This document shows, piece by piece, positions 5,835 to 64,000 of a stretch of DNA of 64,000 nucleotides. The DNA is from an uncultured virus (IMG/VR IMGVR_UViG_3300043932_000239) (lineage: Duplodnaviria; Heunggongvirae; Uroviricota; Caudoviricetes): the IMG/VR virus record IMGVR_UViG_3300043932_000239; one strand, 5' to 3'. The position numbers were made by a program, and so were the translations under genes. Numbering within the stretch: the stretch's first letter is position 1; the number at the start of each line of letters is the position of its first letter. The notes below the pieces were generated by a model. It saw only the letters and a program-made list of their open reading frames with translations. It searched no databases and had not been told where the DNA came from.

Positions 5835-8741
5835 ATGAGCCCCCAGGCCCAGACCTTCGCTCCCGGCGAGCGCGTCATGGTCCGTGACGAGCAATGGCTG
5901 GTCCGCACCGTCGCCCCGGCGTCTCCGCGCGATTCCGCCCAGGGCCTCCAACTCGACGTCGTCGGCGTCTCCCCTCTGGTCCGCGACCGCGACGCCACGT
6001 TCTTCACGGCGATCGACCGCGTGCGCCGCTTCGACCCCGCCGACGTCCGCCTCGTCCCCGACACCTCCTCCCACTACCTCACCTCGCGCCTGTGGCTGGA
6101 CTCCGTCATCCGCCGCTCCGCGATCCCCCTCAGCGACACCCGCATCGCGGCCGGCCACCGCGGGCTCTTCGACAAGCTCGACTACCAGCTCCGCCCCGCG
6201 CAGAAGGCCCTCACGAACCTGCGTCCCCGGATCCTCATCGGGGACGCCGTGGGACTGGGCAAGACCCTGGAGATTGGCATCGTCTTGTCGGAGCTCATCG
6301 CCCGCGGCCGAGGTGAGCGCATCCTGGTCGTCACTCCGCGCGCCGTCCTCAAGCAGTTCCAGACCGAGCTGTGGACCCGCTTCGGCATCCCCCTGGTCCG
6401 CCTGGACTCCCAGGGCATCCAGCGCGTCCAGCGCGAGCTGCCCGCCGGGCGCAACCCGTTCTCCTACTACAAGCGGGTCATCGTCTCCATCGACACCCTG
6501 AAGAACCCGCACCGGTACCGGACCTACCTCGAGAAGCACCACTGGGACGCCGTCGTCATCGACGAGTGCCACAACCTCATCAACCGCGGCACCCAGAACA
6601 ACCAGCTCGCGCGCACGCTGGCCCGCAACTCCGACGCCCTGATCCTCTCCTCGGCCACGCCCCACAACGGCAACCCGGAGTCCTTCGCGGAGCTGGTCGG
6701 CCTCCTGGACCCGACCGCCATCGCGGACGACAGGCATTACAGCGCCAGCGACATCGAGCACCTCTACGTCCGCCGCCACCGCGGCAGCCCCGAAGTCGCC
6801 GCCCAGATCGGGGACCGCTGGCGTGAGCGCGCCCAGCCGCAGGTCCGCCCCGTCACCCCCACCCCTGCCGAGCGTGCCGTCCTGGCCGAGCTCGACGCGA
6901 CGTGGCTCCACCCGGCGTCCGGCGTCGCGCCCGTGACCGGCAAGGGCCGGACCCTGTTCCCGTGGACCCTGTTCAAAGGTTTCCTGTCCTCACCCGCCGC
7001 ACTCCTCGCGACGATCGGGAACCGTCGCCGCACGCTGACGGGTAGTTCGACCCCCATTGACGAGGGCGACGCTGCCGCCCTTCGCGGGTCGGGTGCGGAG
7101 CTGGAGGCGCTGGGTCGTCTGGAGGACCTCACGCGGCAGGTCGGGACCCCGGCGAAGCTCGACGCCCTGGTCAACCTGCTGACAGAACTCGGGATCGGAC
7201 CGCGTTCCACCGAACGCGTCGTCGTGTTCTCGGAGCGTGTCGACACCCTGAACTTCCTCAAGAAGTCCCTGCCCCAGCTGCTCGGTCTGCCCGACGGCGC
7301 GGTCGGTCTGCTCCATGCCCAGCAGAGCGACGACGCGATTCAGGGGACGGTGGAGTCTTTCGGACAGAAGGGCTCACCGCTGCGCGTCCTGCTCGCCTCC
7401 GACATGGCCTCGGAAGGCCTCAACCTCCACAAGGAGTGCCACCTCCTCATCCACTACGACGTGCCCTGGTCGTTCATCCGCATCCAGCAGCGCAATGGCC
7501 GCATCGATCGCTACGGCCAGCTCCGGACCCCGACCATTCACGCCCTGGCCCTGGCGGATGAGGAGCACACCAGCGAGGTCCGCGTGGTCACGGCTCTGCT
7601 CAACAAGGAGCATGAGGCCAACAAGGCGTTGGGCGATGCCGGTGTCCTCATGGACCTCGGCCAGACGCAGTACAGTCCCGACCTGGAAGAAAAGGACATC
7701 ACCCAGGCGTTGGCCCGGGGCCAGCAGGTCGAGGATGTCACCCAGACGCCGGAGCAGGCGCTCAACGACCAGTTCCTGGCGGCGTTGTTCGGTGAGGACA
7801 CCAGTGTCGACGTCGAGGCGCCGGCGCCGTTGCGCGAACGGCATCTCTTGTTCCCCGACCAGGACGACTTCCTCGCTGCGATCATCGACGCCCTGCCCGA
7901 TGACACGCGCCGGACGATGCGCATCGAGCGCGACCCCGACCGCGACCTCGTGTCCTTCGAACCGCCCGCGGACCTGGAGATCCGCCTGCGGCAGCTTCCC
8001 CGTGAGCTGGTGCGCGGGGAGGACTCGGTCATCGGGCGCATCCAGTTGACAGGATCGAAGCCGTTGGCGGAGGACCGCCTGCGCTCCGCCCAGCAGTCGA
8101 CGAACCCGTGGCCGGACACGCAGTACCTCACGGCCGTCCACCCCGTCATCGCGTGGGCCGGGGACCGGGGCATGTCGCTGCTGGATCGGCAGACGGTCCC
8201 CGTCATGGCGGGAGCCGTCGAGGCGCCGGTCTTCCTCACACAGGCGACATGGGCCAACGACGCCGGTCAGGTCGTCATCGCCCAGTCGGGGGCTGTCGTG
8301 GGCGTCATGGATTCCGACGGACGTCTGCTCGCGGACGGTTCAGACGCCGACGTCCTCGACCTCATGCGGGTCCTCGGGGCCGCGCGCCTGGATGCACACA
8401 GCGTCAACGACGGGCGCGCCGGACGCTGGAGCACGGAGGCGTTGGCGCGCGGCGTCGAGCCCGCGCTCGCGGTCGCAAGCGCGGAGCTCACACGTCGGCG
8501 CGACGAGTTCGAGGGCGACCTGCTGGAGCGCATCCAGAGCGACCAGGAACGTCTGTATTCCTGGCACCAGCGGTCCCTGGACCTGCTCGGGCAGATGCCT
8601 GCGGGTGGCCATCGGTCCAAGCGGGAACAGCGCGTGGCCCACGAGTCCACCCGCCTGGAGCGGCTCATCCAGTCCTCGGCGGCGTCCGGTGAGCCCTATG
8701 TCCGACTGCTCGGGGTCATCGTCCCCGGAAGGAGCCTGTGA
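5835..8741 (+). CDS. SNF2-family helicase, DISARM DrmD-like
   Basis: GDAVGLGKT, DECH, SATP, SEGLNL, QRNGRIDRYGQ motifs; N-terminal PGERVMVRDEQW; TGATG overlap with the MTase gene. Confidence 0.9.
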   Translation: MSPQAQTFAPGERVMVRDEQWLVRTVAPASPRDSAQGLQLDVVGVSPLVRDRDATFFTAIDRVRRFDPADVRLVPDTSSHYLTSRLWLDSVIRRSAIPLSDTRIAAGHRGLFDKLDYQLRPAQKALTNLRPRILIGDAVGLGKTLEIGIVLSELIARGRGERILVVTPRAVLKQFQTELWTRFGIPLVRLDSQGIQRVQRELPAGRNPFSYYKRVIVSIDTLKNPHRYRTYLEKHHWDAVVIDECHNLINRGTQNNQLARTLARNSDALILSSATPHNGNPESFAELVGLLDPTAIADDRHYSASDIEHLYVRRHRGSPEVAAQIGDRWRERAQPQVRPVTPTPAERAVLAELDATWLHPASGVAPVTGKGRTLFPWTLFKGFLSSPAALLATIGNRRRTLTGSSTPIDEGDAAALRGSGAELEALGRLEDLTRQVGTPAKLDALVNLLTELGIGPRSTERVVVFSERVDTLNFLKKSLPQLLGLPDGAVGLLHAQQSDDAIQGTVESFGQKGSPLRVLLASDMASEGLNLHKECHLLIHYDVPWSFIRIQQRNGRIDRYGQLRTPTIHALALADEEHTSEVRVVTALLNKEHEANKALGDAGVLMDLGQTQYSPDLEEKDITQALARGQQVEDVTQTPEQALNDQFLAALFGEDTSVDVEAPAPLRERHLLFPDQDDFLAAIIDALPDDTRRTMRIERDPDRDLVSFEPPADLEIRLRQLPRELVRGEDSVIGRIQLTGSKPLAEDRLRSAQQSTNPWPDTQYLTAVHPVIAWAGDRGMSLLDRQTVPVMAGAVEAPVFLTQATWANDAGQVVIAQSGAVVGVMDSDGRLLADGSDADVLDLMRVLGAARLDAHSVNDGRAGRWSTEALARGVEPALAVASAELTRRRDEFEGDLLERIQSDQERLYSWHQRSLDLLGQMPAGGHRSKREQRVAHESTRLERLIQSSAASGEPYVRLLGVIVPGRSL

Positions 8742-10477
8742 TGGGCGACGAGATCCGCAACGACACGGAGTTCCTCTCCGCCCATTGGCTGGAGGAGGGG
8801 TTCCCGACCCGGCGCAGCGCCCTGTACACAGAGTGGCAACGGGCCCACAAGGACGGCCGGCCTGATCCCCTGCACGCAGTCGCCTCGCTGGCCGGTGACT
8901 ACCTGGCGGCCCTGGGCGGCGACCGGGACGACGGCGGGATCACCCAGGCGCACCGCGCATTGGTGACGGCGCTCGGCCTGGCGCCGATCGACCGGGCCGA
9001 CCTCACGATCGAGCGCGACCAGGACCTCGCCCTGCTCCAGGGTGACCGGGACATGGAGGTCCCGGCGCTGCTGGGCGTGAGCGGCCCGTCGGGAACCGCG
9101 CTCATCGTCCTCGACGTCCGTCCGGTCGACGCGGTGGAGGACCTGCTGTCCGACAGCGCCCGGCTCGTGGAACCCCTTCGGGTCGCCGACCAAAGTCACG
9201 CGATGCAGGACGTCCCGGAGGTGGCCAAGGCCTTGTCGGAGGTCCTGGTCGCCGAGGACGCGCCGCGCTACGTCGTGGTCGTGGCCGGTCGGTGGGCGCT
9301 GCTCACGGACGCGGAGCGTTGGAGCGAGGGCCGCTATCTGGGCCTGGACCTGCTGGCCGTGTTCGAGCGGCGCGAGTTGACGTCGGCCGGCGGGCTGGCC
9401 ACGCTGTGCGCGCTGGTCGGTGGCGACGTCCTGCTGCCGGGCGACGACGGCTCGATCGGCATGGACGAGCTGACGAAGGACTCGACGTCCCACGCCGTCG
9501 GCGTCTCCGACGACCTGCGAGACGGTCTGCGCCAGTCCATCGAGATCCTGGCGGGCGACGTCGTGCGGACGGCGGACAGACGGGGTCTGGATCTGGCGGA
9601 TCCCGACCTCCCGCAGCGTCTGGCGCGCGAGTCCCTCCGGTTCCTCTACCGCATCCTGTTCCTGCTCTACGCCGAGGCGCGTCCCGAGCTGGGCATCGTG
9701 CCGGTCGGCGCCCCCGAGTACACGGCGGGATACGGCCTGGACCGCCTGCGCGACCTCATCGGACAGCCGCTGACCACCGATGATGAGCGCAATGGCTCGC
9801 ACCTGCACGATTCCCTGGACGTCCTGTTCCGCATGGTCGCCGGCGGCCTGCCGTCCGTCGATGTCATGCCGGTCGAGGACCTGCGCGCGGACCTGTTCGA
9901 CCGCCGCCGGACAACGCTCATCGACGGTGATCCGAAGGATCCGGACCCGGTCCGGCTGAGCAACGCCGCCCTGCAGCAGGTGCTGACGCTGCTCCTGCTG
10001 TCGAAGCCGAAGAAAGGCAAGCGCCGCGGGTACATCTCATATGCGAACCTCGGCATCAACCAGCTCGGCGCCGTCTACGAGGGCCTGATGTCCTACACCG
10101 GCATCCTGACCACCGAGCCGATGGTGGAGGTCGCGAAGAAGGGCGACCCCTCGAAGGGCTCATGGCTGGTGCCCACGCGGGAGATCGCGAGCTACCGCGA
10201 CGAGGACCTGGTGCGGTGGACCGACCCCGTGACGGGGGAGGAGAAGGTCCGCAGCTACGGCGCGGGCGAGTTCGCCTTCCGCCTGTCCGGTCGCGACCGG
10301 GAGCGGTCGGCGTCCTTCTACACGCCAGAGGTCCTCACCCACTGCGTCGTCGAGCACTCGTTGGCCGAGCTGTTGACGGAGGACACGAGGGCGGAGGACA
10401 TCCTGGAGTTTCGCGTCTGCGAGACTTTCATGTCACGCCGGATACAAACGCGCGCGAACCTCGTTTTGGGCGCTTGA
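8741..10477 (+). pseudogene. N-terminal half of an Eco57I-type/DrmMI-like N6-adenine DNA methyltransferase, interrupted by the prophage
   Basis: LYRILFLLYAEAR, LGAVYEGLM and motif X SASFYTP; native sequence stops at ILEFRVCE (10423), followed by 17 phage-derived codons. Confidence 0.92.
10400..10447. other. attL (core TGCGAG 10418-10423; phage arm GTCACGCCGGATACAA 10432-10447)
   Basis: Core repeated at 59428-59433; arm is a 14/16 inverted repeat of 59406-59421. Confidence 0.92.
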
Positions 10478-10506: not shown

Positions 10507-11205
10507 ATGCCGTTGCCCCAATTGTTTCGCCAAAGTGGAACACGAATGGTGACAGTTATTAGCAGCTCATCGGGCACCGATAGTCGTGCTGACTACGAGT
10601 CAGTAGTTCTCAACGATCAAGGAATCGAGAAGGCCTACTTCGGGACCGAGACCCCGGTCTACGAAGGTGATCACATCGAGTTTCCCGATCCTCGTGGCGG
10701 GAAGTTCAGTTACATCGTTACTCGGGTGATCGTCAACGATTTGCCTGGCGGTCCGTTTGCTGGAATGGCTTATACCGAGGCGCACCTGGACAAGAAGGAA
10801 CCCCCGCGTGTAGCACCCATTCGACGCCTCACCATTGATAACTTTCACCCTCGCGTTATCGAGTCAGCAGGAAAGCTCTTCGCAGACGGCCATTTTAGTA
10901 AAGCGGTAACTGAAGCATTTGTGTCTATTGAGGTACGAGTCCGTGGTCTCTTGGGCTCCGAGAATTCCGGCACGAAGCTGATGGATGAAGCCTTTGGTGG
11001 CAAAGACCCAAATCTCTCGGTTGCGCGTCATGAGGGGCGTTCTGGCGAAGATGAGCAAGCCGGGTTTCACGCACTCTTTCGTGGCGCAATGTTAGGTGTG
11101 CGAAACCCGGGGTCTCATGAGCTTGCCTTCGAACAGGATCCGCAAGAAGCCCTCGAACACCTAGCGCTTGCCAGCTTGCTACATCGAAGGCTCGACAATA
11201 ACTAG
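10507..11205 (+). CDS. TIGR02391 (Ymh-like) family protein, candidate defence cargo
   Basis: AGGAGG RBS; HPRVIESAGKLFADGHFSKAVTEAF...GTKLMDEAF...EQAGFHALFRGAMLGVRNPGSH (HEPN-like RxxxxH); visibly lower GC. Confidence 0.8.
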   Translation: MPLPQLFRQSGTRMVTVISSSSGTDSRADYESVVLNDQGIEKAYFGTETPVYEGDHIEFPDPRGGKFSYIVTRVIVNDLPGGPFAGMAYTEAHLDKKEPPRVAPIRRLTIDNFHPRVIESAGKLFADGHFSKAVTEAFVSIEVRVRGLLGSENSGTKLMDEAFGGKDPNLSVARHEGRSGEDEQAGFHALFRGAMLGVRNPGSHELAFEQDPQEALEHLALASLLHRRLDNN

Positions 11206-12791
11206 CGCGGGTCAATGGTGACGGTCTGGGTGCTACCGTCGCGGAAGTGGAAGGTCACGGTGCCGTCGGTGCTGACGGTGCCTTTGTCGAGCAGGGTGAC
11301 GCAGAGGTATGGGCTGAAGACCAACTGTTCAACATTAAGGTTTGCGGTCTCCTCCCTGTAATAGTGGTAGGCGGCCAGTCGGTTGTGCTTGTTTTGGATC
11401 TCGGCGACCACGGCTGCGTGCTCTGCCAAGAGTGCCTGGTGTTGTTGGTGGATAGCGTTGAACGTTTTCTCGTAGGCTTGCTGGTCTTGAGCGACTCGTG
11501 CGTTGTGGGCGATCATCGTTTGAAGCTTCTTGGCCACTTCATTGATTTGAGCGAGCAGCCCGGCGGCCTCAACTTCCAGGTCGCTTGTGTCTAGCGCATC
11601 GAGCACAGCCTGGCTGACGGTCTCGTCGGCGGGTGAGCCGAACCGAAGGCGAACCGCCTTCAAGAACAGGTCTTTGAGTCGTTGATCGCTGATGTGCCCG
11701 GTGGAGCATTTTTCCTGGCCTGAGTATTTGTGGCCGCACCGCCAGATGACCTTTTCGTACTTGGAGCCTGCGTGCCAGGTTTTCGAGCCGAAGAAGTGCC
11801 CGCACTGGCCACAGACGAGGGTGGATGAGAAGGGGCGAGTGCGGTGCTGTGTTCGCTGATCTCCAGCGCCTTTGGCTAGTTCGGCTTGGACGAAGTCCCA
11901 CACTGCTGGGCTGATGATGGCTTCGTGACTGCCGGTGACGTAGTACTGGGGCACCTCGCCTTGGTTGATGACCTGCTTCTTTGTCAGGAAGTCAGCAACA
12001 TAGGACTTTTGCAGGAGGGCGTCGCCCTTGTATTTCTCGTTGGTGAGAATTGCTCGTATGGATTGGTAGTGCCAGGTTTTGTTGCCTGCTGCGGTGAAGG
12101 TGTCTGGTTCGTCAGTGAGGGCGCGCGCGATCATGCCGATGGACATGCCGCTTAGATACATGTTGTAGATCCGGCGCACGGTTTTTGCTTGCTCGGGGTT
12201 GACCACGAGGCTTCCGTCTTCGCCTTTGTCGTAGCCGAGGAACCGGGAGTATGGGATGGTTACTTTGCCGTCGGCGAAGCGTTTACGGTGCCCCCAGGTG
12301 ACGTTCTCGGAGATGGAACGGGCTTCTTCTTGGGCCAGCGAGCTCATGATGGTGATGAGGAGTTCGCCTTTGGCATCGAAGGTCCAGATGCCTTCCTTTT
12401 CGAAGTAGACCTCCACGCCTTTGTCTTTGAGCGCTCGAACGGTGGTGAGCGAGTCAACGGTGTTGCGGGCGAATCGGGAGACGCTCTTTGTGATGATCAG
12501 GTCGATCTTGCCGTTGAGTGCGTCTGCGACCATCTGCTGGAATCCGGCGCGGTGTTTGGTTGAGGTGCCGGTGATGCCTTCGTCGGTGTAGACCTTGACG
12601 AACTGCCAGCCCGCGTGGTCGCTGATGTAGCGGGTGTAGTAGTCGACTTGGGCCTCGTAGGAGGTGACTTGGTCGTCGTGATCGGTGGACACGCGCGCAT
12701 ACCCGGCAACTCGGCGCAGGGTTGTTTGGCCTAGTGGAGTGCCCGTGTGGAGAGCTCGTGTGGCGGGGATCGCGGTGACTGTGCGGGCCAT
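11202..12791 (-). CDS. Large serine recombinase (resolvase + recombinase + Zn ribbon + coiled coil)
   Basis: YARVST catalytic motif, TKSVSRFARN, NEKYKGD, CGQCG...WRC. Confidence 0.95.
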   Translation of the reverse strand: MARTVTAIPATRALHTGTPLGQTTLRRVAGYARVSTDHDDQVTSYEAQVDYYTRYISDHAGWQFVKVYTDEGITGTSTKHRAGFQQMVADALNGKIDLIITKSVSRFARNTVDSLTTVRALKDKGVEVYFEKEGIWTFDAKGELLITIMSSLAQEEARSISENVTWGHRKRFADGKVTIPYSRFLGYDKGEDGSLVVNPEQAKTVRRIYNMYLSGMSIGMIARALTDEPDTFTAAGNKTWHYQSIRAILTNEKYKGDALLQKSYVADFLTKKQVINQGEVPQYYVTGSHEAIISPAVWDFVQAELAKGAGDQRTQHRTRPFSSTLVCGQCGHFFGSKTWHAGSKYEKVIWRCGHKYSGQEKCSTGHISDQRLKDLFLKAVRLRFGSPADETVSQAVLDALDTSDLEVEAAGLLAQINEVAKKLQTMIAHNARVAQDQQAYEKTFNAIHQQHQALLAEHAAVVAEIQNKHNRLAAYHYYREETANLNVEQLVFSPYLCVTLLDKGTVSTDGTVTFHFRDGSTQTVTIDPR

Positions 12792-14237
12792 TTAGCGTTC
12801 GCCTCGCTCGGCACGTAGGCGTGCGGCTTCGGCGGCAGCCACGGCCCTGTATTTAGCTAACGCTTCGGGCGGGGTTGGTGCTTGCCGGGGGTTGTCCAAC
12901 CCGAGCCTTTTGGCTTCAGCCCAGCGGGCACGCACGAGTTCGCTCCAGGCGGCTTTCTTAGCTGGGGTCCACGAGTTCTTCTTCAGCTGTGGATCCCATA
13001 TGCGCTGGATCGTTGTTCCATCGGTCAGGTGGAAGGTGAGGTGGTCTTTGCCTTCGACATCAATGTGGTCGAGGCGTTCACTGACGATTTTGTCATTGAA
13101 GGCGTCGAGGTCGAGGACGTCGGCGATGAGCTGTTTGAGGGCGGTGTCGGAGAGTTCGCGGGTGCCGCAGCTGTGGGCTCGCCCGCTTTTGCGGTTGGTG
13201 CAGATCCAGTGTTCGGTGGTGATGGTGTATTGGGTGCGTGGCTTGCGTACGGAGCGTACGAACGACCGGTCGCAGACCGCGCACCGGATCTTCGAGGTGA
13301 GCGTGACCGTGTTGATCGCCCAGTTCGCCTTCGCTCCGAGTTCTCTGCGCCTAGCGATTTCGGTTTGGACCGCCTCGAAGGTCGCGTGGTCGATGATTGC
13401 GGGGATCGCGTTTTTGACCAGATACTGCGGTAGCTGGCCAGTGTTACGCACCGCTCGACCGGGCCTACCCTCGGGGGTGGACCACCGCCCCAAGACTAGG
13501 TCACCGGTGTAGGCGGGGTTCTTTAAGATGTGGCGCACCCATTCGCCGGGCAGCTTGTTATCGGCCAAATGCTCCACCCTGCCTTCGGTGATGAGCTGGG
13601 CCGCCATCTTCTCGCACGAGACCTTCTCCATGTATTGAGCGAAGATCCAGCGCACCACCTCGGCCTCATCCTCAACGATCTGCACGTCGGTGCCGTCAGC
13701 TGAGTTGGTGTAACCGTACAAGCGGAAGCCGTTCGTTTTGCCTTCTTCGAAACCTTTCCAGATGCGCCACTTCACGTTCTGGCTGATTTGCTCCGATTCT
13801 GCCTGCGCGAACGAGGCCAGCAAGGTGAGCATCAGCTCTCCGTCGGCGCTGGTTGAGGAGATGTTCTCCTTTTCGAATCGCACCTCCACCCCGAGATCCT
13901 TCAGCTCGCGAACGGTCTCGAGGAGGTCAACGGTGTTGCGAGCGAATCGCGAGATCGATTTGGTGAGGATCAGGTCGATCTTGCCGTTGCGAGCAAGGGT
14001 CAGCATTTCTTGGAACTGGGGTCGATTCGTGGTCGTTCCAGAGATCCCAGAATCGGCGAACACTCCGGCGAACGTCCAAGTGGGAGTGTCGTGAATGAGT
14101 TGCTGGTAGTAGGAAACTTGGGTGGACAAGCTCAGCGGTGTGCGCTCGGTTTCAGTGCTGATGCGGGCATACGCTGCCACTTTCACCAGCGTCGAAGTGT
14201 TGACTGGTGGTGGGGTGATTTGCTCCATTCTCTTCAC
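12792..14237 (-). CDS. Large serine recombinase (second, tandem)
   Basis: YARIST, TKSISRFARN, NPAYTGD, CAVC...WIC...C; GTG 14237 with AGGAG RBS. Confidence 0.93.
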   Translation of the reverse strand: MKRMEQITPPPVNTSTLVKVAAYARISTETERTPLSLSTQVSYYQQLIHDTPTWTFAGVFADSGISGTTTNRPQFQEMLTLARNGKIDLILTKSISRFARNTVDLLETVRELKDLGVEVRFEKENISSTSADGELMLTLLASFAQAESEQISQNVKWRIWKGFEEGKTNGFRLYGYTNSADGTDVQIVEDEAEVVRWIFAQYMEKVSCEKMAAQLITEGRVEHLADNKLPGEWVRHILKNPAYTGDLVLGRWSTPEGRPGRAVRNTGQLPQYLVKNAIPAIIDHATFEAVQTEIARRRELGAKANWAINTVTLTSKIRCAVCDRSFVRSVRKPRTQYTITTEHWICTNRKSGRAHSCGTRELSDTALKQLIADVLDLDAFNDKIVSERLDHIDVEGKDHLTFHLTDGTTIQRIWDPQLKKNSWTPAKKAAWSELVRARWAEAKRLGLDNPRQAPTPPEALAKYRAVAAAEAARLRAERGER

Positions 14238-14247
14238 GGTGTTTCTC

Positions 14248-14463
14248 CTAGTCAGACCGGGTTTCAGGTTGTATCCATACATCACTGAAGCCCTCGAGAT
14301 AGTCAACGAAACAGGCTCTTTGCAGCCCGGCAAGCGGCGCATCTGGCTGTTCCAGTTGCTCGCACACCGTGATGGCTTCGCGTGGGGTGAGGATGCCGCG
14401 CTCGAGAAGGGTTTTGACCTCCGTGAGCTGGTGATGGGCTTTAAACTCGGCTGGCAGGTTCAT
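14248..14463 (-). CDS. Small SHOCT-like protein upstream of the recombinases
   Basis: 71 aa with KTLLERGILTPRE pattern; ATGA overlap with the upstream gene. Confidence 0.65.
   Translation of the reverse strand: MNLPAEFKAHHQLTEVKTLLERGILTPREAITVCEQLEQPDAPLAGLQRACFVDYLEGFSDVWIQPETRSD
14277..14306 (-). promoter_or_regulatory. Promoter-like motif class B, TTGACTA-N18-TGTAT
   Basis: Same spacing as copies at 33369, 33871 and 34905; 40 bp upstream of the recombinase start. Confidence 0.6.
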
Positions 14464-16464: not shown

Positions 16465-16479
16465 GGGTTCTCCTAACTG

Positions 16480-17128: not shown

Positions 17129-17143
17129 GAGGGCCCCCTTTGG

Positions 17144-21736: not shown

Positions 21737-21751
21737 TCGGGCCTCCAAACA

Positions 21752-48360: not shown

Positions 48361-48386
48361 TCTTGTCTTACCTTCTTTCTTGTTCG

Positions 48387-51315: not shown

Positions 51316-51341
51316 TGGGACAGCCTGGGACAGTTGGGACA
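51316..51341 (+). promoter_or_regulatory. Three TGGGACA direct repeats, operator-like
   Basis: Copies at 51316, 51326, 51335 (about one helical turn apart), just before the GGAGG RBS of 51358. Confidence 0.65.
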
Positions 51342-51357
51342 AACTCCGGTGGAGGTG

Positions 51358-54375: not shown

Positions 54376-54605
54376 AGATCCAATACAACAAGCTCTGGAA
54401 ACTCCTCATCGACAAGAACATGAACAAAGTCCAGCTCCGAGACAAGGCGCGCATCAGCAGCAACTCACTAGCCAAACTCGGCAAGAACGAACCAGTACAC
54501 ATGGACGTCCTCATGAAGATAGCGACCGCCCTCGACTGCAGAGTTGAAGACCTTTTCGAGACCCAAACTGACTCAGAGGAAGATGCCAATGCTGCCAGAA
54601 ACTAG
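54372..54605 (+). CDS. Cro/C1-type HTH (HTH_26) regulator
   Basis: YNKLWKLLIDKNM.K..L...A.ISSNSLAKLGKNE.V...VL.KI...LDC. Confidence 0.9.
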   Translation: MKIQYNKLWKLLIDKNMNKVQLRDKARISSNSLAKLGKNEPVHMDVLMKIATALDCRVEDLFETQTDSEEDANAARN

Positions 54606-54706
54606 GACCAGTTGGACCACACTTCGACGTAAGGGCTTGATGGAAATGATCGGTCTCCGAATACTGCTCCCGAGTCTAACCGCAAGTCCGCGTGCAAGGA
54701 GGCAAG

Positions 54707-56239
54707 ATGTATCTTTCCGCTAAGACGATCAGCGCGGCACTCGATCAGCTCCAAGGGACAGCTTCCCACCTGCTCAAAATCTGGTTTGTATTAAAGCACA
54801 TGGGTTTGAGCCGAGACACGTCCATATTGATCGATACGCAGAATTCAACTCCCACCCTGCAGAGGCTGTTCTCCTGCGGCAGTCCTGAGGGAAAACTTTT
54901 TGTTCCCTTTGCGCACACCGTCCGTTACGCCTTCATGAAAGGCGACGCTTCGCGTTCAATTATTCAAACCACTATTCAGCGATGGAAAACATCGGATTCA
55001 GTAGTTTCCGGATCTCCCACTGCATACCTTGATTTCTCCGGTGAGGGAAACAAGATTCGAGTATCACTCGGAAGGATCTACCCCCAAGGTCTGGGACACG
55101 GTGGAGACGGGTTCGCCCTAGAAGAGGACGCACGAGTCGCTATCCCTATTGAAGCAATGGCGGTTTGGCTCTTCCGTCAGGATGAGCTGGACCAGTATTT
55201 TGACGATAGTGACCCTAACAAGCTCTCGCAGCAACTCGTCGAAGCCCTCATACGCGAGCTGAACCTTGAGCCCGGCGAGATCGAGGCAGTTTTTGTAAAC
55301 AAGCCAATCGATATCGAGACCAGCGACGCTCCGCTTAGCGATGCGGAGTTGTTGGCAATCTGCAATTCGGCATTTGAGGCCAAGTTGGAAGTCGAAATCC
55401 GCAAAGAAGATCGGCTTGAGTACACAAAGAGGATTCAGTCAGTGACAACAATCGATTCAGCACCAGCATGGACCAGGATTTCTCCAAGTGAACAGCTAAC
55501 CTCGCTAGTCAAAGCTGGAGAGCGCGCAATTCTTCTGTTTGGACCGCCCAGAACCGGGAAAACCCGTGCCATCGATAAACTTGTTCTGCGTAATTCTGAG
55601 GATCGTGAGACTATTCAGCTCCATGAGGGGTGGGGTTATGAGAACCTGATCCTAGGACTCGCGCCCGGTGAGAAACCGGGAGAATTCGAATGGACTGAAG
55701 GTCCACTCCTTCGCGCGCTTCGAAACGGCAAGAGGCATATCGTTCTAGAAGAGATCAACCGCACGCGAATTAGCCAGGCCTTGGGCGAGTTATTCTCTCT
55801 TATCGAGCCAGCGTACCGGGGCGAGACCAACGGCATCACGCTTCCGAATGGTGCGGAGATTTTTATCGATCCAGAAGTGGTTTTCTACTTCACTATGAAT
55901 AACGTCGACACGAACACGGAGGATGTCGACGACGCACTCATGGGACGTATGGCAAGTGTTTACTTTGGTCCACGCGTTGAAGACCTTGACGCGATACTTA
56001 GGCACAGAGGTATTCCTTCAGATACAGCCGCAGCCATTAAGACTGTCTTCACTGCTATTCAAGACAAGTATCCGCTGGGTCATGGCTACTTCGCCGGGCT
56101 TCACGCGAGTGATGACTTCCGGATGTACTACATGTGGAGAATCCGACCGGTCTTGATGAATCATTTCTCTGCCTATGAGCCTGAAGTGGTAGCGCAAATC
56201 GACAACCGCGTAGATGAACTCTTCACAGGAACAGCGTGA
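54707..56239 (+). CDS. mcrB: McrB-like AAA+ GTPase
   Basis: GPPRTGKT, IQLHEGWGYE, LEEINR, TMNNVD (NxxD), DDALMGR, LGHGYF. Confidence 0.85.
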   Translation: MYLSAKTISAALDQLQGTASHLLKIWFVLKHMGLSRDTSILIDTQNSTPTLQRLFSCGSPEGKLFVPFAHTVRYAFMKGDASRSIIQTTIQRWKTSDSVVSGSPTAYLDFSGEGNKIRVSLGRIYPQGLGHGGDGFALEEDARVAIPIEAMAVWLFRQDELDQYFDDSDPNKLSQQLVEALIRELNLEPGEIEAVFVNKPIDIETSDAPLSDAELLAICNSAFEAKLEVEIRKEDRLEYTKRIQSVTTIDSAPAWTRISPSEQLTSLVKAGERAILLFGPPRTGKTRAIDKLVLRNSEDRETIQLHEGWGYENLILGLAPGEKPGEFEWTEGPLLRALRNGKRHIVLEEINRTRISQALGELFSLIEPAYRGETNGITLPNGAEIFIDPEVVFYFTMNNVDTNTEDVDDALMGRMASVYFGPRVEDLDAILRHRGIPSDTAAAIKTVFTAIQDKYPLGHGYFAGLHASDDFRMYYMWRIRPVLMNHFSAYEPEVVAQIDNRVDELFTGTA

Positions 56240-57411
56240 TGCAGACTTGGCACGCCGTCGAGAACGAGATTTCGGCGTTACCCGGCCTAACCCCAGCTGA
56301 TGTACCCACTGGCTTGCCAGACAACATCCGCGTTCTCCTTCAAGGTGGAGTTCTGCAGATTCTGGCGTCAAATGTTGCCGGGAATATCCCGCTTCTTAAT
56401 GGCAATAAGCTTGTCATTTCTCCGAAGCATGCATCGCTCAATCCAGTTTCGATGCTGCTGTATCTTCACGATTCTCAGTCGGCTCGACTGGTGAACGATG
56501 CTCCGTTCGGATACTCAAGCGGGTCGCACGATTTCGGCTTGAGTTCGTTGGCAGAGATGTTGTCCCGGGAGCTCTTATCCTTTGCAGCAAAGCCAAAGTT
56601 ATTTCGCCGCAAGCCTACGCTTGAGGCCACGTCATCTGCCGTTGGACAGATAAACTGGCCTGTGACAAACCTCCGAGCGCGGCGAGGAGATGCCGCTCCA
56701 ATCGTAACGAGACGACACAGGCCGACATTTGATATCCCCGAGAACAGAATTATCAAGTCGGCTGCCAAACGAGTATTGGGACTCTTGTCTAGTGACGCTC
56801 CTGGGGCGCGTGTAACTCACGATTGGGCAAACTGGCAGGCATCTACCTTTGCTGGTTATGACGATATCCGCAAGGTCAGCCAGATGATGCGAACGAAAAA
56901 TGTTGGCGGTTCGCATTCCTACTACAGCAATGCGCTCGGTCTCAGCCTCGTCATCCTCCAAGCATCCGGAATTGACCACGGTGAAAGCTGGGAGTCTGAC
57001 GGATACTTGTTCAATATGCCTGGACTTTACGAAGACTTTGTGCGAACAAGTCTCATGAGAGCTGCAGAGCCCACTGCTCTAAGCGTTCAAAAGGGTTTTG
57101 CCTCCAGTAGCTTTCTGCTTACGAATGGCGAAATCGAGCTAATTCCAGACCTGACTATCTATCGCGGCGGATCTATAGAAGCTGTCCTCGACGTAAAGTA
57201 CAAGGTACCCGATGCGAAGGATCTGTATCAGATCTATACATACATGCAGTTTGCGCGTCTCAACGAGGCTTATATCATCTCACCTTCCGTTCGAACTGGA
57301 GACGTGGTCGAGACGTTCGACGGTCACCGAATCAAATGCCTTGGTTTGGATAGCAGTTCTGCGATAGACGTCGACGCACTTGCTTCGAGGGTTATCGAAG
57401 CTCTGCGGTAA
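56239..57411 (+). CDS. mcrC: McrC-like PD-(D/E)xK endonuclease subunit
   Basis: ENRIIK, FNMPGLYEDFV, IPDL...LDVKYK...DLYQIYTY; TGATG coupling to mcrB. Confidence 0.85.
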   Translation: MQTWHAVENEISALPGLTPADVPTGLPDNIRVLLQGGVLQILASNVAGNIPLLNGNKLVISPKHASLNPVSMLLYLHDSQSARLVNDAPFGYSSGSHDFGLSSLAEMLSRELLSFAAKPKLFRRKPTLEATSSAVGQINWPVTNLRARRGDAAPIVTRRHRPTFDIPENRIIKSAAKRVLGLLSSDAPGARVTHDWANWQASTFAGYDDIRKVSQMMRTKNVGGSHSYYSNALGLSLVILQASGIDHGESWESDGYLFNMPGLYEDFVRTSLMRAAEPTALSVQKGFASSSFLLTNGEIELIPDLTIYRGGSIEAVLDVKYKVPDAKDLYQIYTYMQFARLNEAYIISPSVRTGDVVETFDGHRIKCLGLDSSSAIDVDALASRVIEALR

Positions 57412-58609
57412 AGAGGGGTTGCTGCACGGTGGTTGAAGCCAACACTCGCTCAGCAGTGGCGAGGTATTCTGCGCTTACATCAAAACCGATATAGCTCCTC
57501 TCGAGCTTCTTCGCTGCAACGGCGGTAGTTCCAGCACCCATGAATGGATCAAGAACCACATCACCAGGGTCCGTTGAGATCGCGATGCAACGCCCAGGAA
57601 GCTGAACCGGGAACTGAGCCCCATGCCCATCTCGGCCAGAAGAGGTTGGCAAGTACCAGAAGTCACTAAGCTTGTCCGACTCAAGCAGCTGTCGCCCACC
57701 AAGGTCTGAAGGTAGCTCCAAGTATGCGGCCTTGTTGAACTTGGGGGTTCGTTCCCGAGTGAGATGCAGAATGTACTCAACATTTCTGCTGACTCGCGAC
57801 TGCTGGGGTTCAGGAGTTGTGGCCTGCTTGCACCACGAGATCGTGCTCTTTACGTAGTAGCCGATTTGGGCAGCACGCTGAGCAATCCGTTGCGGGATCA
57901 AACACTGCTCACCATCTTTCAGATACGAGTGTCCGGCGGAATACCGCAAGTACTCGTGATCTTTCCACGATCGACCATCCTTGCCTTGCATCGCATGCAG
58001 TGTCTCAACTGCACTACCCCGGATTTGAGTGCGAGTGTTGTACGAATCCATGATGTTCCACCACACGGAGCCATCTGCAGCAATTTTCGGAAGCAATGCA
58101 TGCAAGACCTCGACCGAATGGCGAATAAACCCTTCAGGTGTCTGCTCGAGACCAAACGAGCAGTACTCGCCATCCGCCCAAAGGCGCTCACCAGGCTCGT
58201 CATAGACCCGCATAGCCCAGTACGGCGTTGAGGTGACAACAGTATTCACCGAACCATCTTTCAGTCTTCCAATCAGCTGGAGAGCGTCTCCGACAACGAA
58301 GGAGTCCTTTTGAATGACCTCTTGACTCTCGGCAACGAGCACGGCTCCGGTGACGGCTCGACGGAGATATTCAAGAACTCTGCTGCGAGGAACGAACGTC
58401 TCGGAGAATGCATCTTGATCTAGAAGTTGCCGAACGTCGGCCTCGGACAAGATTGACTTCCTGCCAAGGACACGCCTAATGAAGCTGTGAGTCATGCCCA
58501 CAACGGGGGCAACAAGCTCAATGGGGAACACTAAGTCGGTAGTACTGCTGTCGGGGGAGGCGACCGCCGTTTGAGGCTTGATGGTATATGCCTGCTTCAT
58601 CTCACTCAT
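57392..58609 (-). CDS. Beta-class amino (N4-C/N6-A) DNA methyltransferase with N-terminal extension
   Basis: VVTSTPYW motif IV variant, HGAQFP, VVLDPFMGAGTT motif I; ATG 58609 overlaps the HTH gene. Confidence 0.88.
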   Translation of the reverse strand: MSEMKQAYTIKPQTAVASPDSSTTDLVFPIELVAPVVGMTHSFIRRVLGRKSILSEADVRQLLDQDAFSETFVPRSRVLEYLRRAVTGAVLVAESQEVIQKDSFVVGDALQLIGRLKDGSVNTVVTSTPYWAMRVYDEPGERLWADGEYCSFGLEQTPEGFIRHSVEVLHALLPKIAADGSVWWNIMDSYNTRTQIRGSAVETLHAMQGKDGRSWKDHEYLRYSAGHSYLKDGEQCLIPQRIAQRAAQIGYYVKSTISWCKQATTPEPQQSRVSRNVEYILHLTRERTPKFNKAAYLELPSDLGGRQLLESDKLSDFWYLPTSSGRDGHGAQFPVQLPGRCIAISTDPGDVVLDPFMGAGTTAVAAKKLERSYIGFDVSAEYLATAERVLASTTVQQPLFTAELR

Positions 58610-58859
58610 TACGACCGTCGCCGGTTCCTTCCTCATAACAGTCTTCAAAAGCCAGAATGTCGTTGGGTGAACAATCCAACGCTTTACAAATCCGCCCAAG
58701 TGTCGCGGTGGTAACCGTCTGATTTCGACCCAGCTTCGTGATGGTTGATGAGCTCAGACCGGCAAGGTCTCTAAGCTCGCCCTTCCGAATTCCTCTGTCG
58801 ATAAGCAACTTCCAGAGGTTTCTATAGTCCTCGCGAGGCGCGTTCGATGTGTCAACCAT
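58602..58859 (-). CDS. Cro/C1-type HTH (HTH_26) regulator, controller-like
   Basis: YRNLWKLLIDRGI.K..L...AGLSSSTITKLGRNQ.V...L.RIC.ALDC. Confidence 0.88.
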   Translation of the reverse strand: MVDTSNAPREDYRNLWKLLIDRGIRKGELRDLAGLSSSTITKLGRNQTVTTATLGRICKALDCSPNDILAFEDCYEEGTGDGRNE

Positions 58860-59405: not shown

Positions 59406-59452
59406 TTGTATCCAACGTGACCGGTTGTGCGAGCCTGCCCTGGGGTCCGGGG
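59406..59452. other. attR (phage arm TTGTATCCAACGTGAC 59406-59421; core TGCGAG 59428-59433)
   Basis: Inverted repeat of the attL arm; host coding sequence resumes at the core. Confidence 0.92.
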
Positions 59453-62400
59453 CATTCGCGAACGAGGCCGTCAATCAGCTGGCCGACGCCTACCTGGAGC
59501 GTCGTCAGGACGAGCTGAATCAGCGCATTCCGGCGGATGAGCTGCCCGAGGAACGCCGCCGGGTCAAGGCCTGGATCGCCCTGCACCGCGTCTACGGCGT
59601 CGACCTCAATGACACGGCCGTGGAGCTGGCCGAGGTCTCGATGTGGCTGAACGTCATGCAGCCGAGGCTCGCTGCCCCGTGGTTCGGCCTGCACCTCAAG
59701 CGGGGCAACTCCCTGATCGGGGCCCGGCGGGCCACCTACGACCTGTCAGCGCTGAGGAAGTCGAAGTCCAAGTGGTGGAAGACTCCGCCCGAGGATCGCG
59801 GGCTGGCCGACGTGCCCCTCGGGGGTCTGGAGAAGGGCAGCATTCACCACTTCCTGCTGCCCAGCGACACGTGGGGAGCCGCGGCCGGGGCGAAGCAGGC
59901 GAAAGAGCTGGCGCCCGAGCAGGTCGACACCATGAAGACGTGGAAGCGGGGGATGCTCCGCCAGCCGACGGCCACGCAGGTCAAGACATTGGCATCGTTG
60001 GCGCGGCGGGTCGAGCGCCTCTGGGAGATCGCCGCCAAGCGCCTGGAGATCAGCGAGGCGGAGGCCTCGCGCGACATCGACGTGTGGGGCCGTGAGGCGG
60101 AGCCCAGCCATTCGAATGTGACGCGCGAACAGATCGAAAATGCGCTGGCAGACCCGGACTCGATGTACCAGCGCCTGCGCCTGGTCATGGACGCGTGGTG
60201 CGCGTTGAGTTTCTGGCCGCTGGACCAGGTTGACCAGTTGCCCACGTGGCAGGAGTGGCTGGCGACATGCACGGACCTGCTCGGCATCGAGACCACGGAC
60301 AAGGGACAGAACGAGGACTTCCTGACGCAGGGGAACGACTTCGACAAGCTCGCTGAGATTGAGAAGTTCGAGCGGTCGTTCCACCGGATGCCGTTGATGT
60401 TCGAGATTCAGGGGGCGCACCCGTGGCTGGCGACTGTGCAGGAGATCGCCGCGCGCGAGGGCTTCTTCCACTGGGAGTTGGACTTCGCGCAGGTCTTCGG
60501 GCGCGGAGGGTTCGACCTGCAGGTGGGAAACCCGCCGTGGGTGAGGCCGGTGTGGAAGGACAGTGCGACCCTGGCCGAGTTCGACCCGTGGTTCCTACTG
60601 GAGGAGAAGATCCCGGAGAGAGCGTTCCGCGATCGCCGTGGCCAGGTACTGGACGCACCGATGGCGCGGGACAAGTACCTGTCGGATCTGACGTCGGGGA
60701 CCGCGACCTCGACGGTGCTGGGCGATAGAGTCGAGCATCCGGTCCTCGCAGGCCTCCAGACGAACCTCTACATGAACTTCATGGAGCGGACGTGGCGGTC
60801 GATGGCGCCCGCGGGGATCGTCGGACTGATCCATCCGGAGGGCCACTTCCTGGACCCGAAGGGCGGTGTGCTGCGGGAGAACACGTATCGAAGGCTGCGA
60901 AGGCATTGGCAGTTCTCCAATGAACTTCAGCTTTTCCCTGAGGTCCACCATATGACCGTGTTTGGTGTTCATGTTTATGGTCCACCGAATGAACCTAATT
61001 TCAAGCAGGCCGTTGGATTGCTGAACGTGTCGACACTTGACGGATCGCTTCGCGATGACGGGCGGGGAGAAGAGCCTGGAATCCAACACGCTTCCGGTGG
61101 ATGGGATATTCGCCCTCATCGTTCTCGAATTCTGGCTGTCGATACTGATGTGTTGACCACGTGGGGATCTTTGTTTGATCCGGAAGGAATTCCTGCAGTT
61201 CAGGCTCGAATGGTTCGGCCTTACCTTCGTGAGCATCAGGAGGTGCTGGATCGCATCGCCTCCTCGGCGAGTCGTCCCGGGGAGAACATTGAGGTCTCAA
61301 GCGGTTGGCATGAAAAAGGAGCCAAGCAGGACGGATATATCGAGCAGGCGAAGACAGAGGCTGAGTCTTGGGACGAGGTGATCCTTCAAGGCCCGCTGTT
61401 CTATGTGGGGACTCCATTCTATAAGAATGCGCGCCCGTCGGGCTTCAAGAACAGCGACTACGACCTGTGGGACCTGGACGAGATTCCTGAGCGCATGATT
61501 CCTCGGACAAATTATCGTCGTGCGTGCGACCGGAAACGATATGACGCGGGTATGGATCGGTGGGACGGGCGACCGAGTTGGGACTACTGGCGCCTCGCAG
61601 TGAGGAGCATGACGCAGGTGGGGCTTGTTCGCTCTCTTGTCCCCGCTTTGATCCCCCGAGGTGCGGCACATGTCGATGCGGTACACTCGTGTACCGCATC
61701 GACATGTGCCGCACCTGCACATGTCCATGCGCGAAAATCTCCTGACGGAGATTTTCGAACGTATTCGACGGCGCCTGAAGACTCGTTGGCGACCGTCCTG
61801 ACGTGTGGGTTGTGGTCGTCTCTCCCCTATGACTTCTTGACGAAGGTCTCAGGACAGACGCACGTCCATCCCGAGTTCATCCAGAAACTCCCCAGCCCGA
61901 CGAAGCACCCCGCCTGGCCCTTCCTCCTTCTCCGCACGCTGCGCCTCAACTGCCTGACGCGGGACTACGAGGACCTGTGGAACGCGCTGGCCCCATTGAC
62001 AGTGGCTGGGGATTCCTGGACACCCGCATTCGCCGACTGGCCGCAGCTCACCGTTCCCACCGGTGAATGGACATGGGACATCCCGCTTCGGTCCGATTTC
62101 GAGCGGCGGGCCGCGCTGGTCGAGACCGACGCGCTGGGCGCGATCATGCTCGGCCTGACCGCCGAGCAGCTGTGCCTGATCTACCGCGTCCAGTTCGGCG
62201 TCCTGCGCAAGTACGAGAACGACATGTGGTTCGACGGCCAAGGCCACCAGATCGCGAAGGACCACCACGCTTACGGCGTCCACCAGGAGAAGACGGATTT
62301 CCCGACGCTCATGGACTACGTGGCCGCCATGGAGGACGCGGGGCTGGATGCGCAGCGGGACCAGCCGAGCGACGCGATCCGCACGGACGCCAGGTTCTCC

Positions 62401-62631
62401 GCGTTCCTCGAGCACTATGAGGCGCCGTTCGTGAAGGCCGACCGGGAACGCGAGATGACGCTGGCGCACGAGGAATTCACGCGGCGCCTCCAAGCCGCCG
62501 GGCTGCTCCTGGCCGACGGGTCCGAGGCTCCGGGCGCCGAGGCCGTCGACGCGCAGGCGGTGCTGGAAGGCCGCCTGCCGTTCACGCCGACGCCAGGGGA
62601 CCGCGCCATCGATGAGAGGGAGCGTGCGTGA
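59428..62631 (+). pseudogene. C-terminal half of the interrupted Eco57I-type/DrmMI-like methyltransferase
   Basis: CEPALGSGAF motif I, YGVDLN..AVELA, FFHWELDF, VGNPPW motif IV, then a TRD; ORF is intact to its stop. Confidence 0.92.
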
Positions 62632-64000
62632 TGACCCAGCCCACGGAGACGCCCTCGTCCGTGTTCGCCGCGACGGCGCCGTTCGCCCCCACTCTGCCCA
62701 GCCTGCTGGCGGAGGAGGTCCAAGACGCGCTCACGGAGTACCTGACGACCACCTACGCGCTGGGCGACCAGGAGACGCGGGACGCGCTCGGGCGCTTCCT
62801 GCGCGACCCGGAGACGGGGATCTTCCGCGGGCCCTACTACCGGCTGCGCCTGCCGTTCCGGCCCGCACCGGAGGGATGGCGGAACCCGCTGGGCTGGCTG
62901 CCCGACAGGTTCGTGCCCCACGCCCACCAGGCGGCGGCGTTCGACCGGCTGACCTCGCTGGGGCGCGTTCCACAGCCCACCCTGGTCACCACGGGCACCG
63001 GGTCCGGCAAGACGGAGTCGTTCCTGCTGCCCCTGCTGGACCACGCGCGGCGCGCGGCGGCCGAGGGCGCTCCCGGGATCACCGCGCTCGTCCTGTACCC
63101 GATGAACGCGCTGGTCACCGACCAGGCGCGACGCATCGCCGACTACGTCGCGTCCAGCCCGGAGCTGTCAGACGTCCGTGTCGGGCTCTACATCGGCGGC
63201 AACGGGCGAAACCGCACGATGGGCGCCGACCACATCATCGATCACAGGGAGGAGCTCCAGGCCCGCCCCCCGCAGATCCTGCTGACGAACTACAAGATGC
63301 TGGACCTGCTGCTGCTGGACCCGCGCCACCGCGGACTGTGGGCGGGTGCGGCGGAGTCGCTGCAGTACCTGGTCCTCGACGAGTTCCACACCTACGACGG
63401 CGCGCAGGGCAGCGATGTCGCCATGCTCCTGCGGCGCCTCGGCATGGCGCTCGGGATCGCGGAGGAGGGGCGGCCGCTGGGGCGCGTGACGCCGGTGGCG
63501 ACGTCCGCCACCCTGGGCGATGCCGGGGACACCGCGCCCATGCGGGAGCTCGCGCGGACCGTGTTCGGCTGCGACTTCCCGCCAGACTGCGTGATCACCG
63601 AGAGCCGTCGGACGCCGGAGGAGTTCCTGCCCCCCGACGACGAGGGCTCGCACGACCTGGTCCCGCCCCGGCCGGAGGTCCTGGCCGACCTGCCGGCGCC
63701 GGAGTCGGAAAGGCCGGAGTCCTGGATCCCGCTGGTCCGGTGCGTGTTCGGTCAGCGGGCCACAGAAGTCATGAGCGGAGGCCTGCCCGATCCGGTGCTC
63801 GTCGGCCATCTGCTCACCAAGCACCCGGTGACGCGCCTGCTCCTGGAGGCCATGGGCACACACCCCGCGGCCCCGGACGCCATCCTACGGACCCTCCAGG
63901 TGCGCACCCTCAACCTGTTCCCGTGGTATTCGGATGACTCGGCGGTGCAGGCGCGCAACATCCGGGCCCTGGGCCGCCTGCTCGCGTTGTACTCGTTCGC
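62631..64000 (+). CDS. DEAD/DEAH-box helicase (DrmA-like), 3' end beyond the window
   Basis: Manual translation from ATG 62631 (TGATG overlap): TGTGSGKTESF, LYPMNAL..DQ, LLTNYKMLD, VLDEFHTYDGAQG, TSATLG. Confidence 0.9.
   Translation, partial: MTQPTETPSSVFAATAPFAPTLPSLLAEEVQDALTEYLTTTYALGDQETRDALGRFLRDPETGIFRGPYYRLRLPFRPAPEGWRNPLGWLPDRFVPHAHQAAAFDRLTSLGRVPQPTLVTTGTGSGKTESFLLPLLDHARRAAAEGAPGITALVLYPMNALVTDQARRIADYVASSPELSDVRVGLYIGGNGRNRTMGADHIIDHREELQARPPQILLTNYKMLDLLLLDPRHRGLWAGAAESLQYLVLDEFHTYDGAQGSDVAMLLRRLGMALGIAEEGRPLGRVTPVATSATLGDAGDTAPMRELARTVFGCDFPPDCVITESRRTPEEFLPPDDEGSHDLVPPRPEVLADLPAPESERPESWIPLVRCVFGQRATEVMSGGLPDPVLVGHLLTKHPVTRLLLEAMGTHPAAPDAILRTLQVRTLNLFPWYSDDSAVQARNIRALGRLLALYSF

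Follow-up and report, generated by a model that had tools for sequence, protein, structure and literature searches.

The window analysed here is a stretch of 64,000 nucleotides recorded as an uncultured virus of the Caudoviricetes (IMG/VR record IMGVR_UViG_3300043932_000239), in which a prophage lies inside a methyltransferase gene of its bacterial host. The host flanks have a G+C content of about 67-71%, and the interior of the insert (10.4-59.4 kb) about 52-63%. The insert is 49,010 bp long, bears the same six-letter core at its left and right attachment sites (attL and attR), and by its Pfam matches is a full siphovirus-like prophage, with virion, lysis and replication genes and two large serine recombinases (LSRs) beside attL; the matching IMG/VR record is rated 100% complete. 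The interrupted gene is the second of an operon that leads from an SNF2-family helicase through the methyltransferase to a DEAD helicase, with TGATG at both gene junctions. The coordinates of all features are given in Table 1.

The closest relative found, in Actinomyces provencensis (L002), has the same operon without interruption: an SNF2 protein of 1086 aa, a methyltransferase of 1635 aa (L002:8324-13231), a DEAD helicase of 2186 aa with an MZB domain (the former DUF1998), and a UvrD-like helicase of 768 aa. This context is kept in 80 related loci, with an SNF2 homologue 5' of the methyltransferase gene in 78 of them and a helicase neighbour in 70. DISARM (defence island system associated with restriction-modification) of class 1 consists of DrmD, DrmMI, DrmA, DrmB and DrmC. 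The operon resembles it in joining an SNF2 helicase, for which DrmD is the best PADLOC model, a large N6-adenine methyltransferase, and a DEAD helicase plus a DUF1998/MZB domain. It differs in that the methyltransferase best fits type IIG, with DrmMI models matching the two halves at 7e-29 and 3e-21, far below REase_MTase_IIG PDLC03611 (2e-90 and 3e-216). A DrmA accompanied by a separate DrmB (DUF1998) was not found, since the best helicase model is DruE and in L002 the MZB/DUF1998 domain is fused into the helicase; the window stops before that region. The phospholipase D (PLD) nuclease DrmC, which is optional in class 1, is absent from L002, where the UvrD-like gene, without a PLD domain, takes its place; the corresponding region lies beyond the window's end.

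The insertion junction can be read to the letter. On the left, the host frame (+, start at 8738/8741) reads ...ILEFRVCE and runs past the crossover into insert DNA up to position 10477; on the right, an open frame spanning 59425-62631 (+) reads (L)CEPALGSGAF. The methyltransferase is hence split between the E and the P of motif I, which binds S-adenosylmethionine (SAM), and the joined protein would have 1626 aa from the ATG at 8741. When aligned with the intact 1635-aa homologue of L002, the N-half matches residue for residue (1-562 to 1-562, 92% identity) and the C-half matches from 1-1058 to 560-1601 (79% identity), each in a single alignment and free of stops. Nothing is missing or doubled at the junction apart from the Cys-Glu codons common to both halves. 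The gene is unbroken at the equivalent residues in 78 of 80 homologous loci, the exceptions being L043, where a 55-nt gap separates the N-half and C-half matches, and L029. A 2846-nt contig of run X1, the probable source run, bridges attL at a depth of 111, and an IMG/VR record (G001, 52 kb) carries the identical junction. An earlier reading made from the letters of the window (the sequence-only reading) had proposed the operon with its TGATG coupling, the split at the SAM-binding motif, and an in-frame product of about 1626 aa upon joining at TGCGAG. The Pfam matches with both gene-junction sequences, the position of the core, and the alignment to L002 bear out these proposals in turn, and the misassembled junction that it had named as a possible flaw is contradicted by the X1 contig and by G001.

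The rearranged locus L029 (Williamsia sp., 10001-15750) contains no prophage, but inverted partial copies of the methyltransferase locus: a frame on the + strand corresponds to C-half residues 1-1016, and the opposite strand encodes the N-half fused to residues 545-1034 of the C-half. Either an invertible or phase-variable arrangement or the scar of a rearrangement could explain it.

Table 1. Host and prophage features of the window, with the evidence for each.
Feature	Coordinates	Strand	Evidence or remark
SNF2-family helicase, DrmD-like, host operon gene 1	5703..8741	+	Pfam SNF2-rel_dom and Helicase_C; best PADLOC model DrmD 1.6e-85
Host methyltransferase, N-part, to ...FRVCE	8738..10423	+	No Pfam family; PADLOC REase_MTase_IIG PDLC03611 positions 132-561, 2e-90; DrmMI 7e-29
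attL core TGCGAG	10418..10423	.	Inferred crossover dinucleotide GA at 10421-10422
Phage-arm-encoded tail fused in frame (TFMSRRIQTRANLVLGA, stop)	10424..10477	+	
First prophage gene, Hypoth_Ymh (HEPN-like) cargo	10508..11205	+	Pfam PF09509 3.1e-32; PADLOC PD-Lambda-3_B 2.1e-13, Aga_HEPN 7.6e-07; AAGGAGG 5' of ATG
LSR1, large serine recombinase	11202..12791	-	Resolvase, Recombinase, Zn_ribbon_recom domains
LSR2, large serine recombinase	12792..14342	-	Resolvase, Recombinase, zinc-ribbon domains; 38% identical to LSR1
Lysis and virion module: amidase with CW_7 repeats, holin, tail endopeptidase, tape measure, head completion, HK97-type capsid, ClpP-like protease, portal, large terminase	15104..32902	-	Pfam
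ParB-N6/N4 methyltransferase, SAM synthetase (MetK), small terminase	34951..38024	-	Pfam; PADLOC MTase_II 3.9e-173
Abi_C / AbiJ-like cargo	37873..38949	+	Pfam PF14355 1.1e-22; PADLOC AbiJ 3.4e-10
Replication module: SNF2 helicase, D5-type primase-helicase, antirepressor, family A polymerase, Enc34-type single-stranded DNA-binding protein, DUF2800 nuclease	40014..49571	-	Pfam
Low-G+C cargo block: ABC-3C CTD11 protein, DUF2326 protein, McrB-like AAA_5 and McrC, N6/N4 methyltransferase	51334..58699	.	Pfam, PADLOC
Right-arm inverted repeat and attR core TGCGAG	59406..59433 (repeat 59406-59421, core 59428-59433)	.	
Host methyltransferase, C-part: P of motif I (PALGSGAF) through NPPW and specificity region	59434..62631	+	Eco57I methylase domain; PDLC03611 positions 555-1473, 3e-216
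DEAD helicase, DruE/DrmA-like	62628/62631..64000, leaves window	+	Pfam DEAD; PADLOC DruE 1.1e-46, DrmA 4.6e-07

The phage arms carry inverted repeats of the TTGTATCC..CGTGAC type, which are symmetrical around the GA in TGC-GA-G (the left-arm repeat lies at 10432-10447). These two letters are the centre of the repeats and the only ones common to all related junctions, with the exception of an AAA codon in L235 and L243. In a related phage, both arms are found joined as attP in the middle of a contig (IMG/VR L166, 40.9 kb). The LSR genes sit 0.8 kb from attL, and the tandem pair is kept in relatives. The domains of both LSRs, the conservative junction, the short core and the non-palindromic dinucleotide are those of integration-class serine recombinases. 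The precise insertion of this kind assumed by the sequence-only reading agrees with the common core, the LSR domains, and an intact match to the unoccupied site (attB) both in L002 and in run X12. To judge by these letters, the phage integrated by conservative recombination, with the exchange at the GA of the Glu codon that begins SAM-binding motif I. In the metagenome contigs L235 and L243 the junction codon at attL is AAA rather than GAA, so the presumed crossover dinucleotide differs from that of the other copies; these copies may be locked in, with excision blocked.

Of 338 Actinomycetaceae genomes, 63 have relatives of LSR1, mostly as tandem pairs. The junction was read in 12 Actinomycetaceae genomes whose LSR1 is at least 63% identical (relatives at target sites span 63-91%), and all 12 present a truncated methyltransferase gene running ...x-E into the phage arm. 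The targets are type I HsdM in six (G155, G009, G106, G288, G289 and G087), MmeI-like in two (G190, G314), type IIG in G181, type ISP in G316 (Mrr nuclease, helicase, coupler), and in G206 the pglX gene of a BREX (bacteriophage exclusion) system, directly 3' of brxC; the remaining genome, G116, is taken up below. IMG/VR adds G003 (MmeI-like) and L085, which has the same target gene as the window. Where attR was fetched, the other halves begin DPCCGSGGMF, DPGVGTGGML, DPACGCGNFL or (V)CDPACGSGNFL and continue to NPPF. On the N6_Mtase profile, the N-halves end at positions 42-57 and the C-halves begin at 52.

A target-blind scan with the phage arm alone yielded 22 metagenome and three viral loci with 14 distinct flanks, which are HsdM (6), MmeI-like (4), type ISP (1), type III Mod (1; cut at the D of DPPY, eight loci with one flank) and without target class (2). 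In total, 25 distinct resolved junctions were obtained, comprising 12 type I HsdM, 6 MmeI-like, 2 other type II/IIG, 2 type ISP, 1 BREX PglX, 1 type III Mod and 1 DISARM-like gene, and none of the 25 lies outside a defence methyltransferase. Among LSR1 relatives at 51-58% identity (G115, G112, G164, G330, G333, G152, G095 and G228), a truncated methyltransferase was found within 6.2 kb in 0 of 8, and G164 has an intact hsdM-hsdS pair close to its LSR relative. Hence, methyltransferase targeting seems confined to the clade at 63% or more LSR1 identity. The GenBank phage collection contains no close relative, the best LSR1 matches having 50-59% identity across 84-99% of the query, with three records in the 60-80% band and only short DNA matches. 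Partial or broken integrase copies stand beside the full one in several genomes (G316:C1:307967-309549, G288:C10, G257, G303, G096 and G206:C9), and these may be remnants of earlier insertions.

A single integrase can be seen in several of these genes. Between G009 and G190, LSR1 (526 aa) is 100% identical and LSR2 98.9%, and their targets are HsdM in one case and an MmeI-like gene in the other; in G155, LSR1 is 99.2% identical and sits in another HsdM. In run X8, a contig identical to window positions 10420-11400 is joined to a different host flank (...NKVYE). An identical LSR1 or an identical phage end at different sites is the mark of a multi-targeting LSR. Runs X1 and X5 also hold a 1.5-kb low-G+C contig that matches only window positions 10420-10459 (the 40-nt phage arm), has an HsdM-like flank ...NKVYE and then diverges; this is a further phage variant in the same community, at the site of a second host.

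At the DNA level, the right arms have in common only the bases imposed by their codons (GANCCNNNNNNGGNNNNGG). Given this loose consensus is found 165-216 times per genome of about 2 Mb, chance cannot explain exclusively methyltransferase targets. Either some extra recognition not visible here is involved, or selection acts strongly on where insertions survive. The motif I of the phage's own methyltransferase (57392-58699), DPFMGAGTT, agrees with the loose consensus, yet this gene is not a target, a hint that the integrase reads beyond the visible consensus. From the junctions as read, the integrase module is not gene-specific, and it inserts at the D/E-P codons with which a catalytic motif begins (mostly DPxxGxG, and DPPY in type III Mod).

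The phage arm also supplies an end to the broken host protein. In every case the crossover falls on the first two positions of the D/E codon, so that translation in the host frame runs through 17 codons of phage DNA before it meets a stop. Tail ends are alike in three diverged arm types (TFMSQRIQTRANYDLAA, TSRAEWIQISGGYALAA and AFNPTWIQNGGTLALAA), and LAA-stop is present in 12 of 14 aligned tails and in 23 of 25 in the arm scan, with Leu kept via all six of its codons and Ala via three. The tags encoded by the transfer-messenger RNA of five host genomes are AEHNRTDFALAA, AKQNRTDFVLAA, AERNSTESFALAA and AEQNRTDYVLAA (twice), ending in FALAA, FVLAA or YVLAA, and the pattern of an SsrA-like degron as in the host tag, (aromatic/aliphatic)-x-LAA, is found in the same proportion of aligned tails (12/14). 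The tail thus resembles SsrA and probably marks the truncated N-fragment for ClpXP-type proteolysis. The alternative, in which the tail would be the C-terminus of a phage protein encoded across attP, on the model of mycobacteriophage BPs, was rejected, as only 15-86 codons are open upstream. The seven arms considered have no common start codon except a T/GTG two codons before the junction, to which G155 adds two more upstream.

In all six junctions read on the prophage side, the tail stop is followed by a first prophage gene in the orientation of the host gene. Its identity varies: Ymh/HEPN in the window and G003, GmrSD in G206 and G289, Schlafen/AlbA_2 in G181 and G314, and no assigned family in G288. 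We infer that this gene is transcribed from the host operon. A promoter scan of positions 58600-59600 returned 0 sites, which leaves no support for the C-half being expressed from the phage end.

The alleles present in natural populations were compared at attL in the assembled contigs of four runs (X1, X5, X8 and X12). In X12, the host side has a depth of 1281 with no differences and then branches into two continuations. One, at a depth of about 755, is the intact attB, with 20 letters identical to window positions 59434-59453; the other, at about 553, is an L085-type phage arm and represents an occupied allele. The uninterrupted allele hence exists in the same population, and the site is used by two phages. 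The sequence-only reading had called for a search for both the uninterrupted allele and other elements at the same codon. The X12 junction, identical in its letters to the window's two host arms, provides the former, and the phage of L085, a different one with LSR1 67% identical, provides the latter, as it occupies the identical gene site. No attP of this phage was seen in the contigs of the four runs, nor any loose end joining the right arm at attL, which, as these are contigs, is uninformative as to the absence of attP. The same reading took the intact halves to mean either a recent insertion or selection for reversibility; given the insertion is polymorphic, it is probably recent in the population, and selection for reversibility is unneeded.

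These results suggest the following sequence of events. A complete temperate phage with two tandem LSRs has integrated at the GA of the Glu codon that opens motif I of the DISARM-like N6-adenine methyltransferase, cutting the enzyme just ahead of its catalytic domain and placing 49 kb between the helicase gene downstream and the promoter that serves it. With the enzyme split and the helicase gene displaced, the system is most likely off in the lysogen. The truncated N-fragment, which in type IIG and ISP enzymes is the nuclease- or motor-bearing part, would be delivered by its tail to proteolysis, and excision would rebuild the gene exactly. We put at roughly 0.7 the probability that this phage integration module is aimed at the catalytic motif of defence methyltransferases and knocks out methylation-dependent defence. 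There are signs of adaptation to the site, namely the in-frame SsrA-like tail and the co-oriented cargo gene. A more elaborate version would see here an anti-defence module of three parts, in which the integrase pair homes to the D/E-P motif of methyltransferases of type I, IIG, ISP and III restriction-modification (R-M), BREX and DISARM-like systems, the arm donates an SsrA-mimicking degron that destroys the leftover nuclease or motor, and a phage defence gene is set behind the host promoter, so that integration is counter-defence and immunity is swapped. This version is tentative, and we would give it somewhat less than an even chance.

Several observations weigh against the targeting of defence methyltransferases as proposed. 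The host operon itself appears to be a non-canonical, DISARM-like and putative defence system. The type II/IIG-like target of G116 has weak matches only, two junctions are without an assigned target (L230=L238, at a contig end, and L231), and distinct flanks may not equal independent events. DNA conservation in the targets is slight, with only the T at -5 kept among 23 left arms (22/23), and the type III Mod site lacks GxG codons. The window's own tail ends in LGA, and those of G316 and L234 in LAV, so the degron may be weak in this window. Finally, the contigs compared in the four runs hide rare forms.

The sequence-only reading had interpreted the prophage as a reversible switch whose excision would re-arm the defence, with comK and sigK as parallels. 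In its full form, this view has the prophage kept in the gene so that regulated, non-lytic excision can restore the defence on demand, as also with spsM. The prophage does split an otherwise intact gene, and exact restoration is possible in principle, as the intact attB in X12 indicates; the conservative serine-recombinase junctions, the two intact halves, the intact and occupied alleles with identical flanks in one sample, and the attP form of a relative (L166) are all in keeping with it. The same idea was also speculated for integrative and conjugative elements (ICEs) in hsdM, in the passages of Ambroset et al. 2016 (PMC4701971) devoted to them. However, there is no evidence of regulated or lysis-independent excision, no excision product of this phage appears in the contigs, no recombination directionality factor was identified (though none was specifically sought), and a population containing both lysogens and non-lysogens would account for the two coexisting alleles just as well. 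The AAA junction of L235 and L243 would hinder excision, yet persists. Moreover, the same integrase in many unrelated defence genes argues against co-adaptation with this operon, and its lineage uses the same motif in type I, IIG, ISP and III R-M and in BREX pglX, which points to general targeting of defence methyltransferases rather than to a switch dedicated to one operon. A switch is therefore possible, but is not the most economical explanation, and we consider it improbable.

It could also be that the DNA of methyltransferase catalytic motifs is merely a conserved, dispensable and horizontally widespread landing site, in which case the loss of defence would be a side effect and the tail an accident of attP. 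LSRs often integrate inside genes, and the targets are accessory genes. In type I, III and IIG systems and in BREX, restriction or defence needs the methyltransferase (sub)unit, and its loss should not cause self-restriction; as this loss also abolishes restriction in all target kinds, the insertion would be harmless. Nevertheless, the DNA of the targets has very few bases in common and is thus poorly suited as a conserved site, the LAA end is kept by synonymous changes across three diverged arm types at 43-54 nt from the crossover, and the co-orientation of the first prophage gene with the disrupted gene (6/6) is not what a neutral site would suggest. We regard such a harbour as rather unlikely. 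That the window is an assembly chimera, or a dead, grounded prophage remnant, is a concern raised by its origin in metagenome data. Given the contig bridging attL, the same architecture in independent IMG/VR and isolate-genome records, the full gene set and the completeness of the matching record, this is scarcely credible. The aimed module, by which integration disables a defence methyltransferase, is hence the reading we prefer.

Other contents of the window merit mention. The prophage's cargo of defence type comprises the Ymh/HEPN, Abi_C, ABC-3C/DUF2326 and McrBC genes. The prophage encodes two methyltransferases, and a SAM synthetase gene (36173-37411) adjoins that of the ParB-domain N6/N4 methyltransferase (34951-36201), a pair that may be linked to methylation-based conflicts. 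The cargo block at 51334-58699 has the lowest G+C in the window (52-57%), and its DUF2326/ABC-3C genes have weak LmuA/LmuB (Lamassu-like) matches; it looks like a phage-acquired defence island. Upstream of the host operon (window 1-5700) lie six open frames of 154-617 aa with no Pfam family, of which the 617-aa and 308-aa ones are also without a PADLOC match.

If the proposed reading is true, it would represent a counter-defence route without an inhibitor protein, in which lysogenisation itself strips the host of its methylation-based immunity, whichever system provides that immunity. Further, it would provide a natural serine integrase pair with a protein-motif-defined target, of interest for understanding and engineering integrase specificity, and the first case of a mobile element tagging for proteolysis the remnant of the gene it breaks. 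Moreover, a "broken" R-M, BREX or DISARM gene in a genome may prove to be an occupied attB and not a product of decay, so the defence inventories of lysogens may differ from those of cured relatives.

Literature searches, mostly at listing level and without supplements, returned no paper in which a phage integrase is described as targeting defence methyltransferases at the level of a motif, nor one in which a disrupted host gene receives a degron. A close precedent is that of streptococcal ICEs with serine-integrase triplets, which insert in hsdM and disrupt the type I methyltransferase (Ambroset et al. 2016, PMC4701971; PMC7563491). According to the passages on hsdM in these two papers, the resemblance extends to tandem LSRs, site-specific methyltransferase disruption, very short direct repeats, a uniform integrase orientation relative to the target, and a suggested role of excision. 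There, the element is an ICE with three integrases, whereas here it is a phage with two, and a single lineage is found at one motif in seven or more kinds of methyltransferase gene, with different targets even for an identical LSR1. Those passages do not state the insertion position within hsdM and mention no in-frame tail.

Elements that disrupt a gene and act as switches include the Listeria comK phage, the B. subtilis skin element in sigK, and SPbeta in spsM (PMC5499854). They share with the present case a serine-integrase prophage inside a coding gene, the frame of which is rebuilt by precise excision; the difference is that each has one dedicated gene and shown developmental excision, whereas the module studied here has many targets. 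Multi-targeting LSRs, where one integrase acts at several genomic sites with a common short motif, were described by Durrant et al. 2022 (PMC10083194), the main text of which, supplements aside, makes no mention of methyltransferase, methylase or restriction. In contrast with the sites presented in that text, what defines those found here is a catalytic motif in proteins of a single functional class. Lastly, the account of mycobacteriophage BPs (PMC4557955), in the part concerning its repressor, reports an ssrA-like C-terminal degradation tag, encoded next to attP, that is borne by this phage protein and lost upon integration via a tyrosine integrase. In both cases, an actinobacteriophage encodes an ssrA-like tag beside attP, and integration alters which protein bears it. 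Unlike in BPs, no phage frame crosses attP here, and the tag is donated to a truncated host protein.

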